Shown here: positions 10,491 through 44,055 of the stretch, piece by piece
Numbering within the stretch: position 1 is the first letter of the stretch
How the letters are laid out: every line of letters starts with the position of its first letter
Assembly (NCBI GenBank): GCA_026995045.1
Contig: JALWPK010000042.1
Location: 12,733 to 76,732 of the forward strand
Origin: Gammaproteobacteria bacterium
GTDB taxonomy: Bacteria; Pseudomonadota; Gammaproteobacteria; SZUA-229
Direction of reading: 5' to 3'
DNA length: 64,000 nucleotides
Program-made: the position numbers and the translations under genes
The notes under the pieces: model-generated
Seen by the model: the letters and a program-made list of their open reading frames with translations, nothing else
What the model was told of the DNA's origin: nothing
Database searches by the model: none

Positions 10491-10498
10491 AGCTAAGT

Positions 10499-17862: not shown

Positions 17863-17977
17863 GCTGACGCTTGGCCACCGCCAATTCAACTGTAAGAGCT
17901 GTGGAGTTTCTATAGACCGGGACTTAAACGCAGCGTATAATCTAAACAGCTCGCCTAAGGTTCAGAGGAGAGCTTAA
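17834..17977 (+). pseudogene. tnpB: tnpB 3'-terminal remnant (frame broken by a 1-nt deletion relative to copies C/D)
   Basis: Translates as RYTSCQIDDKLTLGHRQFNCKSCGVSIDRDLNAAYNLNSSPKVQRRA*. It retains the second CxxC of the Zn ribbon and the RuvC-III DRDLNAAxN motif. There is no start codon. Confidence 0.75.
17913..17941 (+). promoter_or_regulatory. Candidate sigma70 promoter inside copy B (TAGACC-N17-TATAAT; weakened -35)
   Basis: Positional homolog of the perfect promoters in copies C and D. The -10 is intact; the -35 matches TTGACA at 4 of 6 positions. Confidence 0.4.
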
Positions 17978-18062
17978 GCGCACATAAGAGTCTAAGTCCC
18001 TGCGCTTGCGTAAACTAAGACGTTGACGATGTGAACTTTGTTATAGGATTTTATAGCAAATT

Positions 18063-19211
18063 ATGACCCGGTACATTCGGTTTAACGAGCAGAAGGTGGA
18101 GTACGAAGTCGCTAAGCGCGATGGGTACCTGCCTGAGTGCATAAAGTGCGTAAAGACAGACGCACTAACGCTTAACACATCATCCCGTAAGCACGGGCTC
18201 ACGCACACCGGCGCAGTCGGCGTTAGTGCTGCATCGCCATGTAGTGATAAAACAATAGTGCCTGTGCCAAATGCAGGTTTTGCGCGTCTGTATGACGTAC
18301 TAACAACCTCCGAAGTCGATGTCAGTCAGATACCCGGCAAAGCAAATCCAGCTAATGTCAAAGGTGTCGCCGGTAAGCACTACACGCAACCGAAGCTCGG
18401 CGCCGGTGTCGAATACATTGGTGTAATACGCCTGAGCGGCCCATGTAACCACACACCTGAGCACGTAGCTTTGCTGTTATCAAAGATATACGGCAATGTT
18501 TTCACGCCTGTGAAGGATGCGGCACTGGCAGGCACCGATGTATCTGAGACAACGCAGACGAATGCACTCACGGCGGCATTGCAGACATACAGCGCGGAGG
18601 ATAAAATCCTATTGACACAATTGGCCAAACAGGCAGCGCGTAATGCTGCGCGTGACGCCTTCAAGACAGTGTTCGCGACATCCTTCACCGCCGGTCTCAG
18701 CGCGGCTAGGGATACAGGCACAAGGCTGTTCAACGCCAAGCAAGCTACGCCGACTCAGATATTCACAGCGATGGTTGAGCAAGCGTTGCTGACTGACATC
18801 AATCACGTAACCAACGCCGCGTTGAAGAAGGCGCTGATATACAGTGCAGACGATGCGTATTTTGAGCTTGCGAAGCAGTTCAATGTGATGTCTTCTGACA
18901 CAACGGGCGAAACAGGTTCTGACTTGACAAACAGGTTAACACAAGCTACAATAACAGAGATTAGCGTAGATCAAGGGCTAAGGCCAGAAGTCCTCATAGC
19001 CCCTCAAAGCTTGTTTGGTGAGGATTGGCGCTTTGTGACTGAGAAGTTCAACTTCGAAGTAAACCCACCAGTATTAGAATTCTCCGCATATCCAGACACG
19101 CCAATGTCATCGGGCACGTCTATGTCCGCAGGTGCGTGGCTTCTGACAGCGCAAGTTCAGTTTAACGCCGCTATTCTCAACGACACTATAAATTACCGAT
19201 ACAGGATTTAG
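18063..19211 (+). CDS. Hypothetical protein (virion-associated by context)
   Basis: 382-aa ORF whose ATG directly abuts cassette copy B. No motifs recognised. Confidence 0.6.
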   Translation: MTRYIRFNEQKVEYEVAKRDGYLPECIKCVKTDALTLNTSSRKHGLTHTGAVGVSAASPCSDKTIVPVPNAGFARLYDVLTTSEVDVSQIPGKANPANVKGVAGKHYTQPKLGAGVEYIGVIRLSGPCNHTPEHVALLLSKIYGNVFTPVKDAALAGTDVSETTQTNALTAALQTYSAEDKILLTQLAKQAARNAARDAFKTVFATSFTAGLSAARDTGTRLFNAKQATPTQIFTAMVEQALLTDINHVTNAALKKALIYSADDAYFELAKQFNVMSSDTTGETGSDLTNRLTQATITEISVDQGLRPEVLIAPQSLFGEDWRFVTEKFNFEVNPPVLEFSAYPDTPMSSGTSMSAGAWLLTAQVQFNAAILNDTINYRYRI

Positions 19212-23000: not shown

Positions 23001-23547
23001 GATGAATACCGCATTCTTCACTAACTTCCACCGCGCTGGTGAGTTGTGCTTTGTATATTCTTCAGACACGGTTGTGCCGATCACCGTAAATAACAGATCA
23101 TTCATGGTAAGCGCCAACGACACTACAACCGATGCGCGTCTTGTAACGAATGATATTCTGGGATATGACGATACAGTTACGGTGAACAGCATTGGCTATA
23201 CAGACAGTAGGCAGCGTCGTATATTGCTACGATACAATGCGAAAGAGCCAGACGGTTTTCTGTATCTTAGCACACGTCCCATAATATGGAACCAGCCGTC
23301 GGAGTATGTGTTCTCTGTGAACGAGGTCGTTAGCACATCAACAAACCTGATAGATGTGCCCCTACACAATGGTGATGTACTGTACTGGATGATCACGGCT
23401 GATAACACTCTTCCAGCATATGGCGTGTTACAGACGCATCCAACTAGTAGAACAATGCGCGTGACTAAGACAGGCGCGTATTGTGTAACGGCGCCTAGGA
23501 ACAGCGCTGGCGTTAGCAAACTAACCACACATGTAGCGATGGTATAA
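20074..23547 (+). CDS. Giant tail protein 2 (paralog-like; gpJ/GTA g15-type motif)
   Basis: 1157 aa, TTG start 1 nt after the upstream stop. It contains LLFVGYEAIQFTDFVLMPDNVTVKFTGLLRGRMNT, equivalent to the motif in 14461..17862. Confidence 0.6.
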   Translation: MARRKFTEDDHLNAAWYTRQVPVNDICRDMPQADCIDYNLATYKPNDEYEPAAIAAMIKEGYDGNEVSPVLGHMLSNLNGLNHAGVAAFCAEDTIEKFGEYPHEEDCFCLNYSYAETDKDNSTTTLGADANAEDSVNTDTLTANSVTVTDEFTQPSIARADIEGVVIPEQYGTVLLTGDIIWMDTPYYDVTTHFYNDVQRAAIADDPALQGPNNAAKTFAGKDSFDASSVTVLDRAPVPNKRLTKKRIARTNVIISLGVRKPASILTVYVNGAPISQDKYRFGNGVSFAHNGDLNALHYIPAYKDLTTLIVEGVEVTTDLKIQALASFSKVLNPKSPFQQGAAPLQTPDPALKFLRNSVLYRNTTTNTLRQVSRIPPYTEAPASYDIQLPAGVTLYDVANDGTVVYYDAANSSIIKTSATGVATTLFHNLTASPTFVKLGNNTLCFDDVANSQLVVAPLGGNVTRIDYPAGTTVSKAVVFDDAFVDVFVNNYSAVLRIELTGGVSATQFNLINATNVANVASTADRYLVFSDDGLDVYRLSDITHMKRIKAAPSTVGTIIAASTYSENTNTYAYVSGMSLYVVDMNTYNINMHALPDAVFAAPKLQAYKDGELLCLCADDIIRIATVSAVTGYGADVAVKDILTALGHPKPDYADVFMRGFTSNNNVEAMDALLRVYSHPRASSGVPTVDISASQNLYDTKATTYVDDTTALSITYKSTSINDDDGLVTAEYRRNNTSGGTTQDIRINAFYSDTQASLAAANAFEQFVARNDVVEITTRSLAEELGDTIRAPNGVLYVIYDYTVGIDGIVSYKAHRAAVPEVTQAPYNAVVEDTAQSSEAVITWDFDNTELLHIPIRITDTSTSSLCYRGAKPSALCVDGDCTVAPPAQPMVLSGVLVPPMPRYNTFNGAMAVDDFVYVKFDVNPSASLSAATYTQLLDDAYLNLLFVGYEAIQFTDFVLMPDNVTVKFTGLLRGRMNTAFFTNFHRAGELCFVYSSDTVVPITVNNRSFMVSANDTTTDARLVTNDILGYDDTVTVNSIGYTDSRQRRILLRYNAKEPDGFLYLSTRPIIWNQPSEYVFSVNEVVSTSTNLIDVPLHNGDVLYWMITADNTLPAYGVLQTHPTSRTMRVTKTGAYCVTAPRNSAGVSKLTTHVAMV

Positions 23548-26500
23548 TGGCTATTGACTTTTCCAAGAAGTGGACCACCACAGGTATCGCTGATATACCC
23601 AACGACGGGTACGACGGTTCAAACTCGTGCATAGAGCGCGCCGAGACGGCGTGTAGTGGCGTTGCTTCGACGGAGTATAACGCCTGTGTGCAGGCCAGAC
23701 TGCGCAGTTTTGGCTGTACGCCGAGCGCGTCGCCAGAGAAGCGTACAGCGGCTACGCAGGTCCAGATGTCTGCGCGACGGGGGACACCGCTAAGAGACGG
23801 ATTCGTACCTGATGAAGAGTTGTCAGGTGTGGCTGAAACAGATGTGCGCGACGGCGTGCGGTACACGTATTCATTAGACAAGCCTAAACCGGCGAAGAAG
23901 AAGAAGAAACTCAAAAAGTCGAAGGATGGGCATAAGGCGCATGTGCTTGAGGATTATCGCTCGATAAAGAGCGATGCCATTGATGTCAGTGATGTGTTTT
24001 CGTCGGATGTTGTGTTATCTCAGCAGTGCAACACAGCGCAGTTCAACGCGATGTACCCTGAAGCAGTAGCCTCAAAACTTGGCCTGTCTCAAATACCGCT
24101 TGGATATGGTCCTAACTGTAATCCTAGTAAAGAGCAAGGCGAGAAAGAGGCGCGCATATGTTATCACGATGCGTATATGGGATGCGTTGTAAAGTTTTTG
24201 GAAGATCAGAAGGCGGCTGCTGAGCGTGCGTTGGAAGTGGCTGAGACAAATCACGCGAACAGGTTGGACTATGAAGCCGACAAGCGGCTACGTGCGCGTG
24301 GTGCTAAAGGGATTGCTGTATCCCAGCCATTCCATGAGTTAGCTATTCCGTTCCACAGAGTGACAAGTGTTGAAGAGTGTATGTCTGCGCTGACGTATCA
24401 GGGGGATGACCCCGTTGATTGGCGGCAGGACACACGCTCTGTGACAAGACGCCGCGACGAAAACGATTCTGACAAACAGGCGACGGACACAGAGCCACAG
24501 TTCTGCTTGGATACAGCCGTTGTGCCGAAGCAAAATACCGTAGACATTATAACGGATATCAATCCTCTAGCTGCACAGTCCGGTGTTGCCAAATATGATC
24601 AACGGTTGAATGTGCGTAGACTTATTCGTAGTCATGTTATGGAGGCGCTTGGTCCGGCGAAAGGTGAGCTAACTGACTGCTCGTGCAGCAAGTGTCTTGT
24701 TGTGCAGAACAAGTCATATGACAGTTCATCAACGGAAGGCGCACAAGCGGCGCTAGTCACCGCCGCACTTGAGCGTAAGGCCAACACATCACCGGATGAC
24801 TTAATCGCGACAAGTGAAGCTGAAAGCGTAGGTGTGATTCTCCCTTATGTCGTTGGGCGGATAATCATACGCGGCACAGTTATAACCGTTGACGAAGAGC
24901 AGGCGGCGGCGTGCGGCTTAGCTCATCCTAGGTTTGACTGTGTTGTGAAGCTTGCCGCCAATCGCGTAGATAAGGTTGTGCGCATTCTTCGACTAGGCGC
25001 TGATGTTACGAATGATGTAGCGTTTGAGTTGTTTTACACCGCTGATGGTCATAGCGCTGTGCGTATGTTCGGCGTGCCTAAAGAGTGGCTGAAGGCCGAG
25101 GGCACGTTAGATGTTGTGTTCGACACATACACAGCGGTGGAGCTTGTTCCAACTGTAAAGCTACGGTCTGACATAGCTGTAAGCACGCGCAGTACCGTTG
25201 TACGCGCTGATATGCGTCGCGTATATGTGAACACAACTACCAATGCGGTTGACGTCTATAGTATAGTGACAGGTGCGAAGCTAGAAACACTCAACGTCAT
25301 AATCAACGCCGGTGATGTCTGGGACGTAACACCTGTTGGGGATGTTGTTATAAAGCGCAACGGCACTGGTGATGTTGATCTATATATCCCGGCCACAGAT
25401 ACGCTAAAAACCTTTGCGAATGTCGTAAATCCAGCAACGGCGGATTTCAGCTACTCGTTGAGCGGTGCTGTGAATCTTGTAAAGTCGAAGCGTTACCAGT
25501 ACGAGACATTGCGAGGTAATCCGCGCGCAGAATTCGATACATGGATACCGCTAAAAGCTGGCGAGGCGTACACGTCAGCTTACAACATTCACAGCAACCA
25601 CGGCAGTGACACCGCAAAGGTCATATCTGTGCCAGCGCACGTTATTGATGCTGATTTAGCCGACGCGCAAACGTATTATAAGGATGTATTCCCCGGAGGT
25701 GAGTTACGTGGCGGTGTGTCTGTTGATGAGTACGGCTCCGATGTGTTTATCCTTCACAACGAGAATTCTTTCAGCATAACGGTTGCGGAGTTTGCTAAGA
25801 ACTACACCGCCGCTAACGCGCCGTTGATTGACACGGTTGCGGCTTATGCGGTGGACTACGACTTCAACAGCAACCTGAAGACCGGAATGGCGGCGCACAG
25901 CCGGACAACATACCTGACGCCTCAGCGTTTTTTCACCAGAGACAACGGCGTTGGTCAAGTACTATTCTCACCTGAATATCAAAAGCTAGTGGTCAACGAC
26001 GGCGCGAATTGGTTCATTGCGGAGCATCGCCTTAGTTTGTTCGAAGCAGGTTTATTCAACTCAGCCAACGCTTCAGTGTCTATGGCACAATCATACATGA
26101 AGCAGATCAATGCACCTCAGCCTGCTGCTAGAGTGACACTCAGTGTTACATCCGATTCCCGCATCAGCATGGGGCGCGAAGCGGTATTTCAGTACATAGA
26201 CACAAATGGAGACATGATTGAGTTTGATGTCGCCAATGACACTTGGCGCAAAGTCGGTGTCGTAAACGAAGCGCGCAACATAACGTCACAGACATACACA
26301 ACGTACGACGGCGGCACCGTGATCTACACAACAGACGACGGCGCGGTAAATGCTGTTACGCCAAACAGCAGTGCCGTGTTCTTCGATGTCGCCGCAGGCC
26401 TTGTGAAAATGTTCAGCTTCCTTGGTATTAAGGCAAATGCGGTTGACTCTGTGCCGTCGTTCTTGACCGGCTTTGCGCTGATAGGCGATTCCACTGTTGA

Positions 26501-28850
26501 GTTGTTGAAGAATCTGTACTATGCAACGGGTGTTGTAGCTGATTTCAATACAGGCACAGACGTCGTAGAGGTGCGCAAAGCCGAAACGCTGAAGCTGGAT
26601 ATACAGCAGCACAAGTACTATAGAGATCATATTATCTTTGCCGATGAACCTGAAGAGACTCCCACGGTTGATATATCGTACTTGGAACCGGCGCACGGTG
26701 TGAGGGAACTATACACGCGTACAGCAGACACATCCAAACTCCTAAGCATGAAGACCAATGCGAGTGTTTGGGACATCGCGTCGGTGGTGGACAACGCGCA
26801 GGAACTCGCAAAACGCCGGTCTGACGGCGACACGATTGTACTGTCTGTTGCCGAAGCGCTGGCGAGTCCGTATGAGGACATTACCTTTGACACTGCAAAG
26901 TTCAGCGCTGGCGTTGAACAACGTTACAGGGATGGTTTGGTCAAATATCCATCCGGTGCCGACGCCTTGCTGATATTCACAACTGACGCTGCGGCGTCTG
27001 CCGACGTCGCACGTCCAGTGTTTGACGGTACAGATACATTGAACGACATTGGACAGCTTAACTGGGGAAAAATAGCTACAATCCCAAACAGTTTTGATCT
27101 GACCTTCACAGCCTACGGCACAGCGGATGCCGCAACGTTAAACACCGCTAAGGGGCTGTTCGGGCTGCGCAACAACGAGTGGATACTGTTCGACGCGGCT
27201 GTGCATGTATCTGGCAACACATACACGTTGCAGAACGCACGTAGAGGCGTACACCACTCACACTACGCTAGAGATTTTAACATACGTTATGCTGACAATG
27301 ACAAAGACGACGGTGTCTGGCTAGTGCGCGCTGTTCCTGATACATACGCGCTACCGGCCAAACCAGCAGCCATCGACAACGCTATTGTTTTGCCACAACA
27401 TGCCATGTCTGCGCAAGTTCCGCTGCAAACACGCTTCTACAACAAAATTCCTGCACCGACCAATATTGTCGTTGGCGAGGATGTCATTAGTTGGACTTCG
27501 CAAAACATCATAGACGACAGGCAGCTTGGCACAGGTGAATATATTGTAGGGTTCTTCTGGGGCTATATGCGCGACGGTATGGATGCGTTGTATTTGCTCA
27601 ACACATTATCAAGGACAAACCCTGAATCTTACAACGATGTTCTATATAAAGGTGAGAACAGATTCCTACACGCGAAGTATGTCACCGGCACTGATATGTT
27701 GTTCCCAAAAGACTATAAGGCGAATCTGGTTGACAGTATCACCAAACACACGGTGACGCCGATTGACATACCTGATACATCAATACCCTTCCAGACAGAT
27801 AATGGATGGTGGTTCTACTCTGATACCGAGCAGGCCGTCGCAGCGGCGCTCACAGCCTTGAACCATCCTGCATACTGGAAAGGCTTTGTACGCGGCACCA
27901 GTCCCGCGCATCCGGCATTTTATGAGTGGATGAAGCGGCTGCTCGTCCCTTCATATAACGGCTGGCATTGGACATGGGACGGCGCTGGTGATGTTATTCA
28001 GGTAATGCCCGAGCTGCCCAAGCTGACTGGGCTTTATGACTACTATGGCGACGGCGCTAAGAATCCCGGAAAAGTTGTGTATCCGGCTGCGGATGTGGGA
28101 AAACTTGCTGAAACGTGGTTTCCAGCGTTTCCCGTTCCTTCCACAGTGTTCCCAATCCGTCACTTTCTAAGCCTGTTCTTGTATAAGCTCGCATCACAGC
28201 GTTTCCCGTTGGTAGATGTCGCACTCAACAGAACTGAGTATCACAATCCAAACACAACACTGTATAACGAGCCCGGCGGAATGCCTAGATACAGTAGCCC
28301 ATTCACTGAAAAACTTCATGTCGCGCGTATTCTGCTGGATCAATTCTATGGCGTACAGACACCTTCAGCAGCCGACAAAACACTTCTCAACGAGTACGGA
28401 CTGGGCGGACTATACACACTACAGACGCACGATGCCGCCAGTACTCACCTGAATGCGCTAGTAAACGAAGCACTGTATAAGGACACAGAGCATTATTTGG
28501 CGCTGCACAACGCTGAGAAAATCGGCATCATCATTGCTGAAGTACAGACTGACGGCACGCTCGGGCACTTTGAACTGCTGGAAGGTGTTGCGCCAGCAAA
28601 GAAGCATGAATGGTGTGTAACAGACAGGCTGAACAACTCAGCTAAGGTACATAAGAGCACAACATACGCGCTGATTGAGGAACTCGGCGTCGGGTGCTCC
28701 ATGTTCTCGATGACGCTGGTTGTGCCTAAATACACGCCACCTGTAAATGCGATGCGTGTGCGTAAGGCGACGACGTACGCAGCAATCGTCAGGGAGTCAA
28801 ACAGGCTGTTGAAGACAGGTACATATTGCGCGTTCGCGCCAAAGGCCTAG
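23547..28850 (+). CDS. Giant tail protein 3 (paralog-like; gpJ/GTA g15-type motif)
   Basis: 1767 aa with a TAATG overlap with the upstream gene. It contains GLFGLRNNEWILFDAAVHVSGNTYTLQNARRGVHHS. The N-terminal roughly 125 aa are Cys-containing and end in KPKPAKKKKKLKKSK. Confidence 0.6.
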   Translation: MAIDFSKKWTTTGIADIPNDGYDGSNSCIERAETACSGVASTEYNACVQARLRSFGCTPSASPEKRTAATQVQMSARRGTPLRDGFVPDEELSGVAETDVRDGVRYTYSLDKPKPAKKKKKLKKSKDGHKAHVLEDYRSIKSDAIDVSDVFSSDVVLSQQCNTAQFNAMYPEAVASKLGLSQIPLGYGPNCNPSKEQGEKEARICYHDAYMGCVVKFLEDQKAAAERALEVAETNHANRLDYEADKRLRARGAKGIAVSQPFHELAIPFHRVTSVEECMSALTYQGDDPVDWRQDTRSVTRRRDENDSDKQATDTEPQFCLDTAVVPKQNTVDIITDINPLAAQSGVAKYDQRLNVRRLIRSHVMEALGPAKGELTDCSCSKCLVVQNKSYDSSSTEGAQAALVTAALERKANTSPDDLIATSEAESVGVILPYVVGRIIIRGTVITVDEEQAAACGLAHPRFDCVVKLAANRVDKVVRILRLGADVTNDVAFELFYTADGHSAVRMFGVPKEWLKAEGTLDVVFDTYTAVELVPTVKLRSDIAVSTRSTVVRADMRRVYVNTTTNAVDVYSIVTGAKLETLNVIINAGDVWDVTPVGDVVIKRNGTGDVDLYIPATDTLKTFANVVNPATADFSYSLSGAVNLVKSKRYQYETLRGNPRAEFDTWIPLKAGEAYTSAYNIHSNHGSDTAKVISVPAHVIDADLADAQTYYKDVFPGGELRGGVSVDEYGSDVFILHNENSFSITVAEFAKNYTAANAPLIDTVAAYAVDYDFNSNLKTGMAAHSRTTYLTPQRFFTRDNGVGQVLFSPEYQKLVVNDGANWFIAEHRLSLFEAGLFNSANASVSMAQSYMKQINAPQPAARVTLSVTSDSRISMGREAVFQYIDTNGDMIEFDVANDTWRKVGVVNEARNITSQTYTTYDGGTVIYTTDDGAVNAVTPNSSAVFFDVAAGLVKMFSFLGIKANAVDSVPSFLTGFALIGDSTVELLKNLYYATGVVADFNTGTDVVEVRKAETLKLDIQQHKYYRDHIIFADEPEETPTVDISYLEPAHGVRELYTRTADTSKLLSMKTNASVWDIASVVDNAQELAKRRSDGDTIVLSVAEALASPYEDITFDTAKFSAGVEQRYRDGLVKYPSGADALLIFTTDAAASADVARPVFDGTDTLNDIGQLNWGKIATIPNSFDLTFTAYGTADAATLNTAKGLFGLRNNEWILFDAAVHVSGNTYTLQNARRGVHHSHYARDFNIRYADNDKDDGVWLVRAVPDTYALPAKPAAIDNAIVLPQHAMSAQVPLQTRFYNKIPAPTNIVVGEDVISWTSQNIIDDRQLGTGEYIVGFFWGYMRDGMDALYLLNTLSRTNPESYNDVLYKGENRFLHAKYVTGTDMLFPKDYKANLVDSITKHTVTPIDIPDTSIPFQTDNGWWFYSDTEQAVAAALTALNHPAYWKGFVRGTSPAHPAFYEWMKRLLVPSYNGWHWTWDGAGDVIQVMPELPKLTGLYDYYGDGAKNPGKVVYPAADVGKLAETWFPAFPVPSTVFPIRHFLSLFLYKLASQRFPLVDVALNRTEYHNPNTTLYNEPGGMPRYSSPFTEKLHVARILLDQFYGVQTPSAADKTLLNEYGLGGLYTLQTHDAASTHLNALVNEALYKDTEHYLALHNAEKIGIIIAEVQTDGTLGHFELLEGVAPAKKHEWCVTDRLNNSAKVHKSTTYALIEELGVGCSMFSMTLVVPKYTPPVNAMRVRKATTYAAIVRESNRLLKTGTYCAFAPKA

Positions 28851-30499
28851 TAGTGGATACTCAACGGCTTTGCGCCATAGGCGCGCCGTTTTGTATTATC
28901 CCTGACATATTGCGAAAGCGCGTCGGGGTAGTCGTCATATTTCCCATTTGGGAAGGCGACAATTTCGTTGACAATATCGGCGAGCCACGAAGCTTTTTTA
29001 GGGAATATAAGGGAGCCTGACTGAATGGCGGGCAATAGGTAACTTTCGACGTTGAACGCTTTTGAGCCCTTATTCTGGGCGCTCACAGGCTTTACAGGAC
29101 AGATGAATGCTTTGCTGTAGTTTTCGATTATCTGCGAACCCATGGCGGCGTCTTCGACAAGTATCACATGCGCACCGTGCGTTTTTGCCATTTTGCCTAT
29201 GATGCTTACGATCTCAAACAACGGCTTCTGAACAGCCGTTGCCTCAAGAACATAACTGGTTTTGTCTTTATAGCGCGCTACGGCGACAATCGCGGTTCTG
29301 TTCGATCCTGTTGTGCTTTTCTGAGCGGCGTCAACTGTGATTGTCACAGTTGCGTCGCCTTTTGGTAATTTGTCGTAGTATTTGAAATCACCGTGCTCGA
29401 CATAATCGCCGAGTTCGTCCATCGGTACGCCTAGATAAGTAGCACTCCACAGCGCGGGTGTCAGTGTTGTCTTGATGTTGATATAGTGTTGTGCGCCGTA
29501 GAACTCTTCCCACAGCCAATGTCCGGGTTTAACAAACTGGTGATCTTCAGAACCCTCAGCGCTGATGTTCACAATCTCATATGGCGACGGCATCGTGTCA
29601 GGGTGCTCTATAAGCATTTTTTCAACATACCCCATAGGGTCCTCTGACATCCAGCGTGTGCCGATCAACAGCACAACAGCTCCCGGCAATACACGCGGAA
29701 ATACGTCAGCAGTGAGCCACTGAATAGCGCGCCGCCGCTCTTTAGGCGACAAAGCACTCTCAGCCCCGCCAACAATGTCGTCAAGAACGATTAGATTGGC
29801 GCGTATCCCAGACGTGTTTGCGCCTACTGATCTTACTGTATAGCGGCCTCCGAAGCCATCTAGTGCCCAAAGATCAGATGATCTAAACGATGTGTCGATA
29901 CTTATATCTGGGAATATCGTCAAGTAATCTGCAGTCTTCAGCGTCTCCCTGTTCGGTATGGAGAACTCTCTACAGACAAAGTTCATTCCGTAGCCGCCAG
30001 CCAACACTTTGTGAGTTGGGTTACGGCCCATGTACCACTGAACAAAGCTCTTTGATGCGTATGAACTTTTTGCAGAACCCGGCGGCAGGCTTAACAGGAT
30101 GATCTTTGTCTTACGGCTTTCTAAGTCCTGCATCTTATTACACATATACCGGTGATGCTCCGCTGGCACTTCAGTCGGATTTATATACTCATGGTATGCT
30201 GTTATGTCGTGCTGCGCCATTGCCGCCAGCACTCTGAAGTACCGGTCTTCTTCACTCGAAAATGTCTGGAACAGATTTATGTTCGGGTGGTTATTCAGGA
30301 ATTGTTGTTCTATTGGTTTGAGATCATGCGTGGTTCTTCCTTCCTGTATTTGTGTATACAAGTCGTGCAGGAACATGACCTTGGCGCGCTCTTTCGCACG
30401 CTCAGCCCATGTGTCGAACCACAATCCCTGTGCTTTTAACTCATCTATAGATGTGAGGCGATTAGTAACCGCCTCATCGAGTAGGAGCCTTGGGGCCAT
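28847..30499 (-). CDS. terL: Terminase large subunit
   Basis: 550 aa. Walker A-like LSLPPGSAKSSYAS, Walker B-like ANLIVLDDIVGG, LLIGTRW, and a C-terminal nuclease-like half with conserved acidic residues (TVDAAQK..., VLVEDAAMG). Confidence 0.85.
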   Translation of the reverse strand: MAPRLLLDEAVTNRLTSIDELKAQGLWFDTWAERAKERAKVMFLHDLYTQIQEGRTTHDLKPIEQQFLNNHPNINLFQTFSSEEDRYFRVLAAMAQHDITAYHEYINPTEVPAEHHRYMCNKMQDLESRKTKIILLSLPPGSAKSSYASKSFVQWYMGRNPTHKVLAGGYGMNFVCREFSIPNRETLKTADYLTIFPDISIDTSFRSSDLWALDGFGGRYTVRSVGANTSGIRANLIVLDDIVGGAESALSPKERRRAIQWLTADVFPRVLPGAVVLLIGTRWMSEDPMGYVEKMLIEHPDTMPSPYEIVNISAEGSEDHQFVKPGHWLWEEFYGAQHYINIKTTLTPALWSATYLGVPMDELGDYVEHGDFKYYDKLPKGDATVTITVDAAQKSTTGSNRTAIVAVARYKDKTSYVLEATAVQKPLFEIVSIIGKMAKTHGAHVILVEDAAMGSQIIENYSKAFICPVKPVSAQNKGSKAFNVESYLLPAIQSGSLIFPKKASWLADIVNEIVAFPNGKYDDYPDALSQYVRDNTKRRAYGAKPLSIHY

Positions 30500-30728
30500 A
30501 ATTTGTTATAACTCCTATAACAAAGTTCACATTGTCGACATTTCAGTTTACGCAAGCGCAGGGACCGAAACTCTTATGTGCGTTTAAGCTCTCCTCTGAA
30601 CCTTGGGCGAGCGTGTTTAGATTATACGCTGCGTTTAAGTCTCTGTCAAGAGAAATTCCACAGCTCTTACAATTGAATTGGCGATGGCTAAGAGTCAGCT
30701 TGTCGTCGATTTGGCAACTGATGTATCG
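30500..30728 (-). repeat. Copy C of the TnpB-3'-end/omega-RNA-like cassette
   Basis: 229 bp on the minus strand, ending at the terminase ATG (30499). The antisense track ORF 30532..30756 shares the peptide ASVFRLYAAFKSLSREIPQLLQLNWRWLRVSLSS with ORF 41071..41436, which exposes the repeat. Confidence 0.9.
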
Positions 30729-30731
30729 AGA
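30543..30731 (-). pseudogene. tnpB: tnpB 3'-terminal remnant (62 codons plus stop, no start codon)
   Basis: The minus strand translates as SRYISCQIDDKLTLSHRQFNCKSCGISLDRDLNAAYNLNTLAQGSEESLNAHKSFGPCACVN*, preceded by an in-frame TGA. Confidence 0.8.
30621..30649 (-). promoter_or_regulatory. Perfect consensus sigma70 promoter TTGACA-N17-TATAAT inside copy C
   Basis: The minus strand reads tctcTTGACAgagacttaaacgcagcgTATAATctaaacacgctcgcc. The spacer was counted as 17 nt. The predicted TSS is about 115 nt upstream of the terminase ATG. Confidence 0.6.
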
Positions 30732-30841
30732 TCAAGAACAGCGCACTGTTGCATAGCGCGGGATGTCTCATTTAAGAAGCTGAAGTCCTGCCTAAGCCTT
30801 ATTGTTCATAACTTAAGCGTATTCATATAGCCTTTTATAGC

Positions 30842-33670
30842 TTATTTGTCAACCTTTTCCTCTGGGATGTATATATAACCATCCTCGATAACTATGCCCG
30901 CGTCTTCTTTGAACTTCGTCATGCGCGTAATCGTCGTAACGTCGTTGGTTACGTGCTTACCGCGTTTTGCCAGATGTGCGCCAGCGATTGTGCGTGTATT
31001 GATGACGTACTTGCCATCAATCTTCGACACTGTGTCTTTTGACACAATTGTATCCAGCGCGCCTGTCGCGCCCACAGCGACAGCGCTGTCACCGGCTAGG
31101 AAGCCGTCGAGAAAATAATCCACCGTGTCCTTTGGCGCTGTGATACGTCTGCGCCGTTCATTATTCTCGAAGGGCCTTGACAGGATTTGCCAATTCATAC
31201 CGTGATCTTCTGGGCGGAAATTGCGAAGGAAGTACTTCATCTTTCCGATGAATACAGGGTCCTGTACGCGCGCGATTTGCTCTGCCCAAAACGTCGGTGC
31301 ATTGCTGTATTTGCGATTGACGACGAAGTAGGATAAGCGCCTGTCATGATCATCAAGAACAACGACATTGTGGTTGTTGGAGGCCATGACTAAGTGGTGA
31401 AAACTGTCTATCTCAACAGAGTCCACACCCTTAGGCTCAATGCGTATCTTGTCTGACGTGATGAAGTACTTCAACTGGCCATCGTCTTTGAAGTTCAGTG
31501 TCTCCGACACCTCATCGTAAAAGACCATATGTTTACCGGCGAGGAGGGCATTGAAGTTGGAGAAAATCTCACGTTTAGCAGACGCAGCCAGTCCGAAGTC
31601 ACCGTGGGGCTCAACAAACATTGCCTTTATTAGCACACTCTTACCTGCGCCTTGGATACCTTCAAAGAACATACACGTCGGCAACTTCTTGCTTGTGAAT
31701 TGATGCGTATGGGCACACCACGCCAGCATATAGTTGAAGGCGTCTTCATCATTGCACGCAAGCACTTCTTTAAACAAGGCGAGTTCTTTGTCATAGAACT
31801 CATTCATGTCGCAGGGGATGCTTTTTATGTTGGCTTCGGGGTCATATGTGTTGAAGGTCACAAGATCAGGCATACTCCCGAACTTATGCTTCGGCGTACA
31901 AGTGATGGCTTCTATCTCAGGATATATGTACGGCAGCCTCAGCCAGTATGACACTACGTTTACGTCATTTTCTATGCGCGCGTCGAACACTCGCATACCC
32001 CTATGGAGTTCGACTAACGCCTCTTCATTATATACGCCGACGCGGGGCGCGATTGTGTTCATAGTGCGGGCCATGTCAACGTATAGCACACCAGTCAACG
32101 CCTGTTTCGCGACAACGGATTTATTGACGCGGCGCATGTTTTTATCAAGCGCTTTGAATGTGTCGATGTACGCTTTCGCATGTTCCGTACTGGTGAAGGC
32201 ATACGCCTGATCCACGAATTCTTCCACACGCACACCTGTGAAGACATCGGCAATCGTGTCGTAGTCCAACCCGTACACATCCATTAGCTTTGTGATTGGT
32301 TTACTGTAATCAGTGAGAAAATGCTGCGTAGTGATTATCCTACGCACAGCAGACGGGAGGCTACGACACTGTAGGCGATAAGCCTTCAACATGTCAGTAC
32401 GCGCAACAACGCCGTGTGTAAGCGCATCAGTGAGGGGTACAGCGGTAAACGCTAACGCATAGAGTTTATCGCTATCCGACAAGTCTCTGTCTTTGCACAG
32501 CTCTTGAAATGTCGGGATATCCTCACAGTCAAACAGAGCTTTCGACCACTTGGCGTCTGACAGTACTTTTTGTGTAAATACGTCGGCATCGTACTCACTG
32601 GCGACGGCCGGGTCAACATACTCGATTGGTTTGAACACAGCGGTGTCGTCAGGTACAAAGTTTTCCTTGACCTGTACTTCACTGAGCGGAAAGTCTAGAA
32701 TGTTCGGCGGTGCAGCGGCGCTCAGCGCGTCGAAGGACAACGTGCCATCAGTCAGTAGTCTGTGAATGAATGTAGGTGTATCACGATCGTTGCAATGTTC
32801 ATGTAAACAGCTTATCGTCGCAAAGCAATATTCATCGTTTGGCGGCGCGGCGAAACATGCTTTGTCACCGTCTCGCTGCGTGCTGTGCTCATGTTCAAAC
32901 GGGCATCTTATGTGATACCCGCCGGAATCCCTGTCGCTTATAATGATTTCAGGGCAGTTGTCGTTGATGACTTGTGCGATGTCAACAGTGCTGTTGATGT
33001 CGAACCACTCCCTAACATCCACAGTCTGGTTGTCGTGCGTAATCCACAGCGCATCGCCGCTGGCCGTGCGTCTGTTGTTTTGATGGTTTGGCGCTATGCC
33101 TGACGCCTCAACATTCTGTATGCTTAAATCCGGGACAAGCGCTTCAGCATCAATGAACGTGCTGGTGTGCTGCACTGTAGAGTTCGCAGGCTTACTTGCG
33201 ACGAAGTACATACGCTCAAGCTGATTGCTCGTTATATCATAATTTACGAAGCCTAAGCTAGCCGCTATGTGCGCGTGGAAATCCGCATACCAGCGCTGTT
33301 TTGGCTCATTGACTTTTTCAGCAAAAGGGATGACTACGCGGTATTTCGGCGTCTTGCCGTCTGACAGATGCGAATATGTAGTGTAGACATAGCTTGTTAG
33401 GTTGCCTTCACGCAGCGCTGACACAGCCACGTCAAATGGCGTAGCATTACTGGCGTCGAAGTCATACACGAGTCCAGCTACACTAATGACATTACGCTTC
33501 TTGCGGCGATTGTCTCTGAACTCAGCCATGCTGAAGCACGGCGTGCGCTCTTTCGACGGAACTTCAAGGTGACTTGTCGCCTTGAATAGCTCGGCAAACG
33601 TCTTCGTAGCGCGCCACTGATCCACAGAATACATGCTGTCGCATGTAGTTATCTTTGTAGCAATCGGCAC
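30842..33670 (-). CDS. Bifunctional primase-polymerase / SF3-type (D5/P4-like) helicase
   Basis: 942 aa. The N-terminal AEP-like region has LVYDFD and YRVVIPF. A Cys/His cluster follows (HIRCPFEHEH...CLHEHC). The C-terminal NTPase has Walker A FEGIQGAGKSV and Walker B MVFYDEV. The GTG start overlaps the sigma gene stop. Confidence 0.8.
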   Translation of the reverse strand: MPIATKITTCDSMYSVDQWRATKTFAELFKATSHLEVPSKERTPCFSMAEFRDNRRKKRNVISVAGLVYDFDASNATPFDVAVSALREGNLTSYVYTTYSHLSDGKTPKYRVVIPFAEKVNEPKQRWYADFHAHIAASLGFVNYDITSNQLERMYFVASKPANSTVQHTSTFIDAEALVPDLSIQNVEASGIAPNHQNNRRTASGDALWITHDNQTVDVREWFDINSTVDIAQVINDNCPEIIISDRDSGGYHIRCPFEHEHSTQRDGDKACFAAPPNDEYCFATISCLHEHCNDRDTPTFIHRLLTDGTLSFDALSAAAPPNILDFPLSEVQVKENFVPDDTAVFKPIEYVDPAVASEYDADVFTQKVLSDAKWSKALFDCEDIPTFQELCKDRDLSDSDKLYALAFTAVPLTDALTHGVVARTDMLKAYRLQCRSLPSAVRRIITTQHFLTDYSKPITKLMDVYGLDYDTIADVFTGVRVEEFVDQAYAFTSTEHAKAYIDTFKALDKNMRRVNKSVVAKQALTGVLYVDMARTMNTIAPRVGVYNEEALVELHRGMRVFDARIENDVNVVSYWLRLPYIYPEIEAITCTPKHKFGSMPDLVTFNTYDPEANIKSIPCDMNEFYDKELALFKEVLACNDEDAFNYMLAWCAHTHQFTSKKLPTCMFFEGIQGAGKSVLIKAMFVEPHGDFGLAASAKREIFSNFNALLAGKHMVFYDEVSETLNFKDDGQLKYFITSDKIRIEPKGVDSVEIDSFHHLVMASNNHNVVVLDDHDRRLSYFVVNRKYSNAPTFWAEQIARVQDPVFIGKMKYFLRNFRPEDHGMNWQILSRPFENNERRRRITAPKDTVDYFLDGFLAGDSAVAVGATGALDTIVSKDTVSKIDGKYVINTRTIAGAHLAKRGKHVTNDVTTITRMTKFKEDAGIVIEDGYIYIPEEKVDK

Positions 33671-34245
33671 TATAACAACTCTTTAATCAAATCCAATATC
33701 ATCCCATACTTAGCGCGTATGGCGTCTCTTGACATGTTCAGCCTATTCGAAATCTCTTCAAAAGTCAAGCCTCTTATGCTACGCATTATGAAGATGTCCA
33801 CATACTCATCGGGTAACGCCTCAAGTTTACGACTCAACAACGCTTGACTTTCGCGCATCAGTGTGTTAGACTCTGGGTCTAATTGCGTTGCACGGGCATT
33901 ACGCGCTTCCTCAATTGGGACAGTATCTACTGCACGGCGGCTTTTTGCGCATGTGTTTAGCATTCTCCCCCTAATGTGCGCGACGGCAAACGTGGTGAAA
34001 CTTGCTTGTTTAACGTTGTCCTCAGCGTACCGTCTTGCGGCGTTTAGCAGGCCGATCAAACCTTCGGCGTACAGGTCATCAGCAGATACCGCCTCATTCA
34101 CTGACGCAGACAAACGTGTGCTATAGTACAATAGGTACGGGTGCATGATCTGCACAATCTCAGAGAATAGTGCGTCTTGCTCAGTGTTTTGAAACTTAGC
34201 AATCAGTGCGCTGAGTTTCACATTCTTCGCTGTTGTTGAACTCAT
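33670..34245 (-). CDS. RNA polymerase sigma factor (sigma-70 family, ECF/group 4-like size)
   Basis: 191 aa. Region 2-like: DLYAEGLIGLLNAARRY...FTTFAVAHIRGRMLN. Region 4-like HTH: LPDEYVDIFIMRSIRGLTFEEISNRLNMSRDAIRAKY. Confidence 0.8.
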   Translation of the reverse strand: MSSTTAKNVKLSALIAKFQNTEQDALFSEIVQIMHPYLLYYSTRLSASVNEAVSADDLYAEGLIGLLNAARRYAEDNVKQASFTTFAVAHIRGRMLNTCAKSRRAVDTVPIEEARNARATQLDPESNTLMRESQALLSRKLEALPDEYVDIFIMRSIRGLTFEEISNRLNMSRDAIRAKYGMILDLIKELL

Positions 34246-38592: not shown

Positions 38593-40965
38593 TTAATGCG
38601 TTTCCAGCCAACTCATACCTCGCTTAACATCAGCAGCGACAGGGCAACGCATACCCAATTCACTGCCCGCTTCAACAGCAGATTTGCTAAGCACATCTGC
38701 AAGAACATCGGCTATGTCAGGCGCTACGCTACACTGTATCTCATCGTGGATATGTGCCAACATAGTCCAATAGCCCTGCTCAATACCCATTGGACACCCC
38801 AATTCGCGCATATTGTCAAATACTTTTACTGCCCAGAGTTTCGCCACCGCAGCAGCCTGTCCCTGAAGCTTCGTGTTGAGTGCGCCGTACATTGACCTTA
38901 TGCGGATACGTCTGCCATCAAGACCAATGATATAACCTCGCTCAGCCTCAGCACGCACGGCGGCGATTGCTGGCGCTAGTCCGGGTACGCTTCTGAGCAG
39001 CTTAGCGCGAATGTCCGCGCCGATTTGTCGCTTTGATGCGTCCGGCGCAGTTGGTTCTGCCGTGTGGCCTAGTTTCCAATCTCCAGCGCCGTAAAGCAGG
39101 CCAAAAAGACACCGCTTCACAATTGCTTTTGAGCGTACACCGGTGCGCTCAAGATTAACACTGTGCACATCGTTGTTAAGCACGATGTCAATAAGCTCGC
39201 CGTCGTCGAATGTTGAGCATACATCCGCCAAGCACCTGACCTCGATATTCTTCAAATCCGCGCCGAGCATGACATGGCCTTCATGAGGGATAAAACAATC
39301 TCTGCACTCAGCGCCAAACCGCCCACGCTTGCCTAGCACAGCAACGGTTCCATCGGGTAACTGGCGGTACTCATGAGGCTCCAGAGGGCCTTTCTTGGTG
39401 CGCGCAACGCCATTCTCGACGAAGCCTGTTTCGAGACTTGGTACTTGGCCAATGTTGAAATTTGAGTGACTGCACCGCCCTGTGACTGTCCCGCCTGCGT
39501 TAGTTCGGCAATGCGCGATGCCTTTGTCATCAACGTGTTTTATCCAAGCCTGTCTCCCTGTTGATATCTGACCTAGAAGTTTTGCGTGGAACAGATAGTC
39601 CGCGATAGACTTTATCATGTCCATGCCTACAGCGTCGTCGATGTCGATGCTGTCAAGGGTGTCAACAGTGACTTGCGGCGTGCCCTTGTCTGTGAATTCT
39701 GTTGGCTGCCAATCGTACAGTGTTGTCAGCCTGTTGACGATTTGTGGGCGACTTGCAGGATTAAATGTCACACGCTTCAGCTTACAGGACTTAGCACCTT
39801 CCGTCGTATTGAAGAAGTAGACCCTGTTGCCGTCTTTATCAAGCTTGAACAGCTTCTTATAATTTACTGTGCGTTTGCTAACATACACAGCACCCCACCA
39901 ACGTCTAGACCCGTCTTCACCGTGTTCGGGGTTGTGCGCTTCATACTTGTCAACCTGACACTTTGTGTCTGCCGCAATGAAGCCATGTTTTCTGAAGGCG
40001 TTGAGTATGATTTGTTTTTCGGGAATTGTCCTGTCTTGCCAGAACAACAGCGCGCGGCTTTTATATTTCCAAAAACTTCTCTCGCGGATCACCGGTACGC
40101 TGACGCCGGCGCTCGTAGTGGCGCGCAACATTGCGGCATGATCTGCGCCGACTGGTGGTTTGCGCATACCATCCAAGAATATATCGAAGTCAAGCTTGTT
40201 GTCCTCATCAAAGGCAGGCCACGCCTCCTTCTTTTTCGCCGCTGTGTACCATGTTCCGAAATGATTGACCAATTTTTCGTGGAGGCTATTAACGGTTGTT
40301 GACACGGCACTAATCAATGCACGCAATCTGTCAAGATGCACTGGGAACCCGTCACGCTGCATCTGTGCAAAGACTTCATGCACGCGCTGTTCGGCTTGAA
40401 TAGCTACGTCATCCTGAGCAGTATTATGTTCTATGATATGGGAAAACAGCTTTGCAGACACGCGCACATCCTGCTCGCAGTAGTCTGACATGGCTTGGTT
40501 CCAGACGCCCCATGTGTGCTCAATCACGTCAACGCCGAGCTTTTCCGCTTCGGCTGCGCGCTCTTTTGCATAGTCCCCCTTCAACATACCGAAGCGATAG
40601 CCCCATGCTTCGAGGGATTGTGAGCCTGTTAATCTGCGCGGTAAGCCTGAGGCGATGTGTTTGCGGTAATCATCGTCGGAAACAGTGCTGAACAACACCT
40701 GACAATAAACCAACGTGTCGTATACAGTGCCGCTGAACTTGAAATCCTTGAAAACTTTGGCGATTGCCGGTAAGTCAAACGCGATGATGTTGTGACCAAC
40801 AAGTGCATCAGCGTTTGACAACAGCTCTACAGCCTTTGGTACATCTTCCTTGTCAAACCGCACAACTTCATCACTGCCTACACGCATGACGTGTATGCAG
40901 TGGATTTTTGTCATCGATGGCAACAGGCCATCAGTCTCGATGTCGAATATATAGCTGTGGGCCAT
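38593..40965 (-). CDS. polA: DNA polymerase I family A with 3'-5' exonuclease domain (no 5'-3' exonuclease domain)
   Basis: 790 aa. Exo I: YIFDIETDGL. Exo II: GHNIIAFDLPAI. Pol motif A: LGADLKNIEVRCLA. Motif B: RSKAIVKRCLFGLLYGAG. Motif C: AHIHDEIQ. Confidence 0.9.
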   Translation of the reverse strand: MAHSYIFDIETDGLLPSMTKIHCIHVMRVGSDEVVRFDKEDVPKAVELLSNADALVGHNIIAFDLPAIAKVFKDFKFSGTVYDTLVYCQVLFSTVSDDDYRKHIASGLPRRLTGSQSLEAWGYRFGMLKGDYAKERAAEAEKLGVDVIEHTWGVWNQAMSDYCEQDVRVSAKLFSHIIEHNTAQDDVAIQAEQRVHEVFAQMQRDGFPVHLDRLRALISAVSTTVNSLHEKLVNHFGTWYTAAKKKEAWPAFDEDNKLDFDIFLDGMRKPPVGADHAAMLRATTSAGVSVPVIRERSFWKYKSRALLFWQDRTIPEKQIILNAFRKHGFIAADTKCQVDKYEAHNPEHGEDGSRRWWGAVYVSKRTVNYKKLFKLDKDGNRVYFFNTTEGAKSCKLKRVTFNPASRPQIVNRLTTLYDWQPTEFTDKGTPQVTVDTLDSIDIDDAVGMDMIKSIADYLFHAKLLGQISTGRQAWIKHVDDKGIAHCRTNAGGTVTGRCSHSNFNIGQVPSLETGFVENGVARTKKGPLEPHEYRQLPDGTVAVLGKRGRFGAECRDCFIPHEGHVMLGADLKNIEVRCLADVCSTFDDGELIDIVLNNDVHSVNLERTGVRSKAIVKRCLFGLLYGAGDWKLGHTAEPTAPDASKRQIGADIRAKLLRSVPGLAPAIAAVRAEAERGYIIGLDGRRIRIRSMYGALNTKLQGQAAAVAKLWAVKVFDNMRELGCPMGIEQGYWTMLAHIHDEIQCSVAPDIADVLADVLSKSAVEAGSELGMRCPVAADVKRGMSWLETH

Positions 40966-41009
40966 AATTAATTATAAATACTTATAACAAAGTTCACATC
41001 GTCAACGTC

Positions 41010-41222
41010 TTAGTTTACGCAAGCGCAGGGACTTAGACTCTTATGTGCGTTTAAGCTCTCTTCTGAACCTTTGGCGAGCGTGTTTAGATTATACGCTGCG
41101 TTTAAGTCTCTGTCAAGAGAAATTCCACAGCTATTACAGTTGAATTGGCGATGGCTAAGAGTCAGCTTGTCGTCGATGGTGCCACAGTTCGAACAAGTCT
41201 TCGACGACGGGAAAAACCGTGT
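41010..41222 (-). pseudogene. tnpB: tnpB 3'-terminal remnant (70 codons plus stop, no start codon)
   Basis: The minus strand translates as TRFFPSSKTCSNCGTIDDKLTLSHRQFNCNSCGISLDRDLNAAYNLNTLAKGSEESLNAHKSLSPCACVN*. FPSSKxCSxCG ... CxxCG ... DRDxNAAxN is the hallmark TnpB/OrfB Zn-ribbon plus RuvC-III C-terminus. An in-frame TAA lies immediately upstream. Confidence 0.85.
41088..41116 (-). promoter_or_regulatory. Perfect consensus sigma70 promoter TTGACA-N17-TATAAT inside copy D
   Basis: The minus strand reads tctcTTGACAgagacttaaacgcagcgTATAATctaaacacgctcgcc, the same sequence as in copy C. Confidence 0.6.
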
Positions 41223-41250
41223 TTACCTTAGGCGCGGACTCATCATGTTG

Positions 41251-43735: not shown

Positions 43736-44055
43736 CGACGCTTAACAGGTTTCACTTTCACCGACGGCGTCGATTTTGCGTCAGTGGGTGATATCATGTA
43801 GTCATCAAGCGTGTCAACACCTAATTCATCCATGATGCGCTTTTTATCCAGCCGTGCTCTTGGCGTTGGATATGAGTAGCTCACAATGTAGCCATCGACG
43901 ACTATATCATTATCGCCGGTGACTGTCAAATACTCCGCAATAGCTGCTTCGAGTTCCTGTTTGCGTCTCTTGTGGACATCAATCTGATCTACACAATCCA
44001 CTATGTCATGAACATAGGCACTGACGCCATCCCGATCAATCATTTCAATCCACAC
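43732..44055 (-). CDS. Hypothetical protein
   Basis: 107-aa ORF that overlaps both neighbours by a few nt (operon packing). Confidence 0.5.
   Translation of the reverse strand: MWIEMIDRDGVSAYVHDIVDCVDQIDVHKRRKQELEAAIAEYLTVTGDNDIVVDGYIVSYSYPTPRARLDKKRIMDELGVDTLDDYMISPTDAKSTPSVKVKPVKRR

Follow-up and report, generated by a model that had tools for sequence, protein, structure and literature searches.

Remnants of a TnpB Element with a Putative OmegaRNA Promoter and Guide RNA Gene in Front of Core Genes of a Tailed Phage

Introduction

What does a consensus promoter followed by a structured RNA do directly in front of the terminase gene of a phage? The question is raised by positions 30500–30833 (minus strand) of a 64,000-nucleotide window (contig JALWPK010000042.1, assembly GCA_026995045.1), which is a tailed-phage genome from a metagenome with genes for portal, capsid, tail tube, large terminase subunit (TerL), primase/helicase, family-A DNA polymerase (PolA) and a sigma70-family factor. 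An original prediction, made from the letters of the window, had seen here a riboregulator of the terminase. By its sequence, the stretch is the right end of an internally deleted, TnpB-only insertion sequence of the IS200/IS605–IS607 superfamily, and its identity as a TnpB right end with its own omegaRNA promoter and omegaRNA gene is well supported. The phage carries five copies of this element, an intact one (copy E) to the left of the window and four remnants (copies A to D) inside it. Most likely, the remnants still supply guide RNAs (omegaRNAs) in trans to the TnpB of this phage, and the promoter would also read into the downstream genes. The complete reading, in which TnpB right ends with a native omegaRNA promoter and an omegaRNA gene still feed the phage TnpB in trans, is given a probability of roughly 0.78; the parts of it that the sequence shows are the tnpB homology, the intact tnpB in the same genome, the conserved promoter, the covarying RNA structure and the lineage-specific insertion.

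The Intact Copy and Its Four Remnants

The accessible stretch of the contig comprises 71 kb, with the last ~1.8 kb on the left and ~3 kb on the right lying outside. Within it, copy E contains an intact tnpB encoding 385 aa, located ~0.8–1.95 kb to the left of window position 1 (L093 3314–4471, minus strand; window coordinates equal L093 coordinates minus 5264). The protein has the domain architecture HTH_OrfB_IS605 + OrfB_IS605 + Cas12f1-like_TNB (PF12323, E = 3.4e-9; PF01385, E = 3.3e-23; PF07282, E = 4.6e-22; all above cut-offs). Residues D188, E272 and D354, as well as C325/C328/C344/C347 of the CxxC...CxxC motif, are invariant in an alignment with six homologues. Only copy E belongs to the TnpB family by full architecture and catalytic triad. 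In remnants B, C and D, the match to the TnpB hidden Markov model (HMM) is limited to positions 328/342–376, the last catalytic Asp is the only one left, and stop codons interrupt the frame. The TnpB available to the four remnants probably comes from copy E.

Copy C is composed of nt 46–78 (including the left end), 249–323 and 1060–1278 of copy E, and the remnants represent a graded deletion series (C > D > B > A). All four have lost 5′ sequence and none has lost the RNA helices P0–P2 described below, a segment of ~90 nt that is kept at an identity of at least 87% in 4/4 remnants. The codons overlapping the promoter of copy C had been described as remnants of TnpB, which is borne out by both the translation LDRDLNAAYNL and an HMM match. 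A search with the 60-aa remnant peptide returned generic TnpB fragments only.

Copies E and C share both ends, and the occurrence at five loci is evidence of mobility. The left end comprises ~25 nt without a clear hairpin; in E and D, it directly adjoins the stop codon upstream of it, and in copy C it follows the 8-nt sequence gctataaa, which resembles a partial left-end duplication. At the right junction of copy E (...gaattATGACC), the next gene, encoding a protein of 193 aa that begins MTHHVFVGIDTD..., starts right at the end of the element. In copy B, the remnant itself (17835–17862, plus strand) encodes the last codons and the stop codon of a 1133-aa tail gene (14461–17862), and the deletion evidently fused the end of this gene to the remnant.

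A Consensus Promoter Inside RuvC-III Codons

The motif TTGACA-N17-TATAAT at 30649–30621 (minus strand) was confirmed as a perfect and correctly placed sigma70 consensus, and the identical 29-mer is present in copy D (41116–41088, minus strand), where it also matches 12/12 consensus positions. It had been described as written in dead codons. The same 29-mer, however, is contained in the intact, live tnpB of copy E, so the promoter was inherited from a working gene and not made in codons that had already died. Its hexamers lie in the codons for ...CGISLDRDLNAAYNL..., which correspond to the zinc finger and the RuvC-III end of TnpB. In the closest homologue, L137 (56% protein identity), TTGACA-N17-TATAAT is likewise found, within ISLDRDLNASYNL; five spacer positions differ, and both hexamers are intact. 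The same DRDxNA register gives only 5–9/12 matches in 62 other TnpB loci, L137 with its 12/12 being the exception. The Leu in front of DRD, which provides TT, and the Tyr of NAAYN, which provides TAT, are peculiar to the phage TnpB and the L137 protein. The pattern points to a dual-coding, lineage-specific and inherited feature, i.e., to the element's own omegaRNA promoter.

Sites that match TTGACA-N17-TATAAT with at most one mismatch are frequent in the window (9 sites vs. 0.31 expected), and because of this excess the phage appears to rely heavily on consensus host-type promoters. In addition to the sites of copies C and D, these are a perfect site outside the cassettes (54156–54184, minus strand) and six sites with one mismatch, five on the minus strand (1965–1993, 2229–2257, 13490–13518, 43901–43929 and 63909–63937) and one on the plus strand (18924–18952).

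Transcription is predicted to start ~7 nt past TATAAT, i.e., 2–4 nt ahead of the first RNA helix. A terminator between the scaffold and the downstream open reading frame (ORF) was not found, so transcription from the promoters of copies C and D is expected to continue into TerL and PolA, respectively. It is plausible that the cassettes secondarily serve the downstream genes as mobile promoters and leaders, which would be compatible with the omegaRNA role. The omegaRNA thus appears to have its own primary promoter in the most conserved catalytic motif of TnpB, with 12/12 matches in two lineages that share 56% identity, which bears on the question of whether omegaRNAs are produced by primary transcription or by processing of tnpB mRNA.

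A Covarying OmegaRNA Scaffold

The region 3′ of the promoter is recognizable as an omegaRNA scaffold. In copy E, it has the same orientation as tnpB and extends from 55 nt before the tnpB stop codon, inside the 3′ end of the gene, to 44 nt past it, where the element has its right end; the layout is the same in the other four copies. A structure alignment of the phage copies with seven TnpB loci (L136/L149, L139, L140, L141, L142, L145 and L137) revealed a common architecture at all seven, consisting of P0 – TAAACG – P1 5′ strand – AAGAG – P2 – TGTTGACG – P1 3′ strand – P3 – flank. The helix of the original prediction corresponds to the base of P2 and its 9-bp palindrome to P3. The minimum free energy (MFE) folds of copies E and C contain the same four elements, P0–P3.

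To check the helix arms for covariation on homologous copies had been proposed together with the original prediction, and P0, P1 and P2 indeed show strong covariation across homologous TnpB loci. For P1 and P2 (12 sequences), 84.7% of the cells are paired, 9/12 pairs are changed on both sides, and the covariation score is 0.694, vs. 0.240 for shuffled sequences (reached in 0/500) and at most 0.205 for slid partners; as the structure was derived from the same sequences that were scored, the comparison that counts is the one with slid and shuffled controls. For P0, 97.6% of the cells are paired, 3/6 pairs are changed on both sides, and the score is 0.492 vs. 0.101 after shuffling. Covariance model R1, which was built from this alignment, detects exactly the five phage copies, one match at each of six homologous tnpB loci and two matches at L140; the matches at these loci (L136/L149, L137, L139, L140, L141, L142 and L145) lie at the tnpB 3′ end. 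It returned no match in L090 and L091, two cassette-free relatives of the phage. At L140, located on the Vibrio alfacsensis plasmid NZ_CP140106.1, the two matches (1605–1676 and 1788–1860) are downstream of one tnpB, the second being a solo scaffold 183 nt past the first.

A search of the window with Rfam 15 returned no family at threshold, and 30450–30900 gave only chance-level matches (E of at least 3.8), which is not counter-evidence if Rfam has no model of the present omegaRNA class. Cyanobacterial TnpB loci, found via the C-terminal peptide, share only the DRDLNAA codons and a GAGGAGA..TAAACGC motif with the phage element at the DNA level; they carry canonical ...GAAGCAGGAAG...AGCAG-type omegaRNAs and were left out of the covariation analysis.

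The P2 arms read TCTAAG...CTAAGA in copies A, B, D and E, and TTTCGG...CTGAAA only in copy C. This difference, with its pair-preserving double changes, was confirmed as originally described, except for a detail of the copy A loop, which reads tcaatgcg and not tccctgcg. In copy C, the P2 arms, with 12 positions, hold 5/7 substitutions of the 94-nt scaffold core (hypergeometric p = 2.6e-4, considering only their clustering). These substitutions convert C:G to U:A, an A/A mismatch to C:G and A:U to G.U, turning a 5/6 helix into a 6/6 helix; a further U>C converts a flanking G.U to G:C. The P2 fold energy is −9.0 kcal/mol in copy C vs. −6.0 kcal/mol in copy E. Every one of these steps can pass via a wobble pair, which fits a stepwise compensation at the RNA level. 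A double change from G-C to A-U is also found in P0 of copy A. The proposal that the double changes in copy C reflect selection on an RNA structure is supported by the presence of an equivalent stem, built from unrelated sequences, at the P2 position in 7/7 homologous TnpB loci compared. An origin of the cluster by hairpin template switching is unlikely, considering that both arms are changed and that the product is G.U rather than a templated G:C.

Guides and Stop/Start Junctions

The five copies resemble one another, and L137 (...ttttataacTaatta/cgaac), only as far as AATT(A), and the next 30 nt past AATT/ATG differ by 47–67% between the copies. Since the similarity ends at AATT/ATG, the guide would consist of the first ~16–20 nt of the downstream ORF; in copy C, the predicted guide begins ATGGCCCCAAGGCTCC. 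Each 16-mer guide matches only its own locus in the phage. Further targets of the guides, elsewhere in the phage or in L090/L091, were considered and rejected: no second match with fewer than two mismatches was found there, and none had a common motif in front of it.

In L090 and L091, whose TerL proteins share 62% and 53% identity with that of the phage, TerL starts at or right after the preceding stop codon; it follows a primase-like gene directly in L090 and an intervening 193-aa ORF in L091. Because TerL abuts the preceding stop codon in these relatives, the element sits exactly in the stop/start junction, and its insertion is specific to the phage lineage. Of the six genes in the window that start with ATGRCC, four carry a cassette (5806, 18063, 30499(−) and 40965(−)), compared to 0/43 other genes (Fisher p = 7e-5). 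The two without a cassette are at 8182 and 53494(−), and the ATGGC of TerL is ancestral. This bias suggests either a target preference beyond the transposon-associated motif (TAM) or strong survivorship.

The ~120 closest TnpB homologues share 45–56% identity with the phage protein. The nearest TnpB homologues with a known context are encoded by phages, namely L149 (50% identity) and Vibrio phages (~40%). Protein scans of IMG/VR and JGI metagenomes returned full-length TnpB relatives of at most 36% identity only. L149 (ENA ERZ23498683 scaffold_19, 154 kb) contains the second-closest homologue. Its tnpB (10001–11176) is located inside a T4-like structural module (Gp23, gp13, sheath, gp19), between an upstream stop codon and the start of the next ORF, and a gene for an HNH endonuclease is present 8 kb downstream.

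Features of the Region

The coordinates of the promoter, RNA and guide segments of copy C, of the remnants and of the adjoining genes are compiled in Table 1.

Table 1. Positions of the remnant copies, the predicted RNA features and the flanking genes in the window.
Feature	Position	Strand	Basis or remark
Copy A	5673–5805	+	TACAAT and scaffold only; between capsid gene stop (5666) and ATG of ORF 5806–6261
Copy B	17835–18062	+	shares the internal deletion junction of C; −35 degraded to TAGACC, TATAAT kept; ends at ATG of ORF 18063–19211
Copy C	30500–30833	−	deletion derivative of E; precedes terminase ATG
Copy D	40966–41250	−	degenerate left end, last ~70 tnpB codons, promoter 41088–41116, scaffold; ends at PolA ATG
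Copy C, left end (aggctatatgaatacgcttaagtt) and first tnpB codons (ATGAACAAT)	30801–30833	−	97% identity to E nt 46–78
Copy C, internal tnpB fragment (...RQDFSFLNETS.AMQQCAV.DLDT)	30723–30797	−	92% identity to E nt 249–323; weak match to TnpB HMM 80–106
Copy C, dead 3′ tnpB codons (IDDKLTLSHRQFNCKSCGISLDRDLNAAYN; second CxxC of zinc finger and RuvC-III)	30621–30710	−	TnpB HMM 342–376, E = 1.6e-13; in-frame upstream stops
Putative sigma70-type promoter, TTGACA-N17-TATAAT	30621–30649	−	12/12 consensus, in LDRDLNAAYN codons; predicted start ~30614–30616
Putative omegaRNA scaffold of copy C (~115 nt, predicted start to AATT)	30500–30620	−	covariance model R1, 75.8 bits, E = 4.8e-18; MFE fold recovers P0–P3
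P0 hairpin (GCTCGCC...GGAGAGC)	30588–30612	−	covariation
P1 helix, encloses P2 (CACAT 30580–30576 with ATGTG 30532–30528)	30528–30580	−	4/6 pairs changed on both sides, 12 sequences
P2 stem-loop (TTTCGG 30570–30565 with CTGAAA 30546–30541; apical UGCG-CUUG-CGUA)	30541–30570	−	5/6 pairs changed on both sides
P3 terminal hairpin (9-bp palindrome, loop GGAGT), then TT and ATG	30502–30524	−	sequence; counterpart in L136/L137
Predicted guide, first 20 nt of terminase ORF (ATGGCCCCAAGGCTCCTACT)	30480–30499	−	end of copy similarity
Large terminase subunit gene	28847–30499	−	phrog_38, E = 3.9e-75; Terminase_6C PF17289; directly downstream of copy C
Primase/helicase-like gene	30842–33670	−	directly upstream of copy C; stop codon 8 nt from start of left-end alignment with E
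Family-A DNA polymerase (PolA) gene	38593–40965	−	directly downstream of copy D

Relation to Known Systems

The phage element belongs to an already known kind of selfish element, i.e., a TnpB/omegaRNA element with RNA-retaining remnants. It resembles the TnpB–omegaRNA (reRNA) systems of IS200/IS605 and IS607, e.g., ISDra2 (Karvelis et al. 2021, PMC8612924; Meers et al. 2023, 10.1101/2023.03.14.532601), in the combination of HTH, RuvC and zinc finger domains and in a guide RNA that overlaps the tnpB 3′ end, extends to the right end and takes its guide from the flanking DNA. The expected common role is the cutting of the empty donor joint and thereby retention of the element. Unlike these systems, the phage element shows no tnpA in the accessible contig and has a left end of ~25 nt without an obvious hairpin; furthermore, it contains a perfect sigma70 promoter in its RuvC-III codons, and its copies lie exactly between a stop codon and the next ATG.

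Loss of the protein part and retention of the 3′ RNA gene is also known from palindrome-associated transposable elements (PATEs) that encode omegaRNAs (Meers et al. 2023) and from tnpB pseudogenes with sense overlapping transcripts (sotRNAs; PMC4615843), and in these cases, too, the presumed user of the RNA is a TnpB encoded at another genomic site and acting in trans. The phage remnants differ in that they lie in a phage genome, form a graded deletion series and have the RNA fused as a leader to core genes. TldR–guide RNA systems of temperate phages (Wiegand et al., PMC10705468; PMC13418256) likewise combine a phage-borne TnpB relative with an adjacent guide RNA. However, TldR has no RuvC catalytic residues left and is guided to a host promoter, whereas the D-E-D triad of copy E is intact and the guides match their own flank only. 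A TldR-like repressor was rejected because of this intact triad, and because each guide is identical to the start of the adjacent phage gene. The free-standing homing endonuclease genes mobE/seg of T4 (PMC2790892; PMC10055350) are comparable as selfish nuclease cassettes between essential phage genes that are expected to spread into co-infecting relatives by double-strand breaks and recombination. In contrast to these, targeting by the phage element would be RNA-guided and multiplexed over five junctions from one protein gene.

Three particulars of the phage element are notable: the consensus promoter in RuvC-III codons, the occupation of five stop/start junctions and the RNA-level compensatory pattern in a remnant. 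With guide RNA/promoter remnants left ahead of its terminase and DNA polymerase genes, the phage illustrates how a TnpB element can reshape a compact phage genome. If the remnants are used in trans, the phage would carry an RNA-guided multi-target homing system, which would be relevant to phage–phage competition and would offer a natural supply of compact multiplexed TnpB guides.

Proposed Function and Alternatives

In the proposed pathway, host RNA polymerase would fire at the promoter in the RuvC-III codons, and the ~115-nt scaffold and the guide would be made as one omegaRNA. The remnant RNA would then be bound in trans by the TnpB of copy E, and the complex may cut un-invaded stop/ATG junctions, possibly with ATAR as TAM, leading to retention or homing of the element as in the canonical role of TnpB. 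The same promoter would also read into the terminase gene and, from copy D, into PolA. As precedents, Meers et al. (2023, 10.1101/2023.03.14.532601) noted non-autonomous derivatives with omegaRNAs that are used in trans, and Gomes-Filho et al. (2015, PMC4615843) described truncated tnpB pseudogenes in which the 3′ RNA is retained.

Several points weigh against this reading. Transcription start, RNA length and TnpB binding are predictions from the sequence. As to the route by which the copies spread, no tnpA was found in the accessible 71 kb of the contig, and neither of the ORFs next to copy E (178 aa and 193 aa) contains a Y1 HuH or serine recombinase transposase domain; an IS607 tnpA is present beside tnpB in the more distant relative L147. 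The TAM ATAR is a tentative reading of three left flanks (cATAG in E, aATAA in C and aATAG in D). Copy A lacks both the −35 hexamer and P3, copy D carries a pair-breaking G>A in P0, and copy C has lost TAAG, a motif with partial conservation among relatives, so that its binding by TnpB might be impaired. Given the young age of copies C and D, a faster decay of the dead codons relative to the scaffold does not show in them (2/89 vs. 7/94 and 0/89 vs. 3/94, respectively), and the compensatory changes of copy C could predate the insertion at the terminase locus. The evidence for present-day constraint on the remnants is mixed.

The best-placed alternative, which is possible but doubtful, is a domesticated mobile promoter and 5′-leader cassette that serves TerL, PolA and the other genes independently of TnpB; it is compatible with the supply of omegaRNAs in trans. 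Insertion sequences with outward-reading promoters and repeated phage promoter cassettes illustrate that a repeated cassette can drive the gene downstream of each copy. In line with such a role, five of five copies are co-oriented with the next gene and abut its ATG, no terminator separates scaffold and ORF, and the insertion has moved the genes off the junction with the upstream stop codon, so that a new initiation context is needed. Erosion has proceeded always from the 5′ side and has never removed the scaffold, and no other part of the cassette changes as fast as the P3 segment next to the ATG (10–21% in copies B–D), as if this segment were tuned for each gene. However, with the −35 hexamer absent from copy A and degraded in copy B, the promoter is not what all copies keep, while P0–P2, which would be dispensable if the genes needed an initiation region only, are retained in all four remnants. 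The structure also matches omegaRNAs of non-phage TnpB loci, and an intact TnpB is present. In contrast to outward-reading promoters of insertion sequences, the phage promoter is located inside a protein-coding motif and would primarily serve an RNA gene.

Somewhat less probable still is that the remnants are functionless debris of a recent insertion sequence, in which conservation would reflect too little time and the deletions would be bounded by essential genes. The divergence from copy E is low throughout C and D, copies E, D and A have a weak P3 or none, and the pair-breaking change in P0 of copy D is joined by a mismatch adjoining P2 in copy A, all of which agree with mere decay. The clustering of the copy C substitutions in the P2 arms, where wobble-compatible steps raised the complementarity, and the double change in P0 of copy A speak against it. 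Moreover, the loss of 5′ sequence from every remnant has spared P0–P2 throughout, and copy B has diverged ~2.6 times as much in its dead codons (10/89) as in its scaffold (4/94; p = 0.10, a trend only).

An extension of the trans-supply reading, speculative and rather unlikely, is that the phage would turn one TnpB and five omegaRNA genes, each of them the leader of a different core gene, against its relatives, either as a gene drive or as a weapon of exclusion that is RNA-guided and multiplexed. Each RNA would then cut the un-invaded junction of an essential gene in a co-infecting relative, and the break would either be repaired only by copying the cassette in, or the competitor would be killed. 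The remnants would be kept as a guide array, with the RuvC-III promoter tuned for early expression.

The hairpin in front of the terminase ATG (TTTGTTATA-GGAGT-TATAACAAA-TT-ATG, 30524–30497, minus strand) was one of the three observations of the original prediction. The perfect 9-bp repeat in copy C, its retention in copy B with a U.G wobble and the 7-bp version in copy D are present as described, but the hairpin is weak in copies E and D and absent in copy A (C, −5.6 kcal/mol with z = −3.4; B, −6.3; D, −1.8; E, −1.7; A, ~0). A conserved presentation of GGAG in the loop did not hold, as the loops read GGATTT in B and E and AAGTATT in D, and no combination of a conserved stem with a Shine–Dalgarno (SD) motif in the loop, either presenting or sequestering it, was found among the copies. 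Nor is the structure specific to the terminase, since the same cassette precedes PolA, two structural genes and the 193-aa gene. A terminase riboregulator with an SD GGAG in its loop, for which the stable copy C hairpin ending 2 nt before the ATG would be suited, is largely refuted by this comparison and highly improbable: GGAG is confined to copy C and lies 12 nt from the ATG, vs. 6–8 nt for SD-like motifs of other phage genes, the downstream genes of the other four copies are unrelated, and a terminal hairpin of different sequence occupies the same place in L136 and L137, with no terminase downstream, as a family feature of the omegaRNA 3′ end.

The Phage Genome

Close relatives of the phage were found neither in GenBank phages nor in IMG/VR. 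Megablast and blastn searches with the region and with copy D against GenBank phages and E. coli genomes returned no match, as did an exact-pattern scan of IMG/VR for the scaffold core, and the TerL relatives in IMG/VR, with at most 26% identity, were uninformative. Two TerL homologues, P0023 and P0024 (705 and 898 aa), contain Hint/intein-type domains (PF07591, PF14890 and PF01079) and represent intein-containing large terminases in relatives of the phage.

The structural block on the plus strand meets the minus-strand block at 28847–28850, where a 1767-aa gene (23547–28850, plus strand) and TerL converge with a 4-nt overlap. The gene of the small sigma70-family factor (191 aa, Sigma70_r2 + r4_2; 33670–34245, minus strand) immediately precedes that of the primase/helicase. 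Six tandem copies of a 19-nt unit (TGGYGTTGAAAAAYTAGGC) occupy positions 60417–60568, right in front of the ATG of the gene at 59227–60435 (minus strand), and resemble iterons or repeated operator sites.

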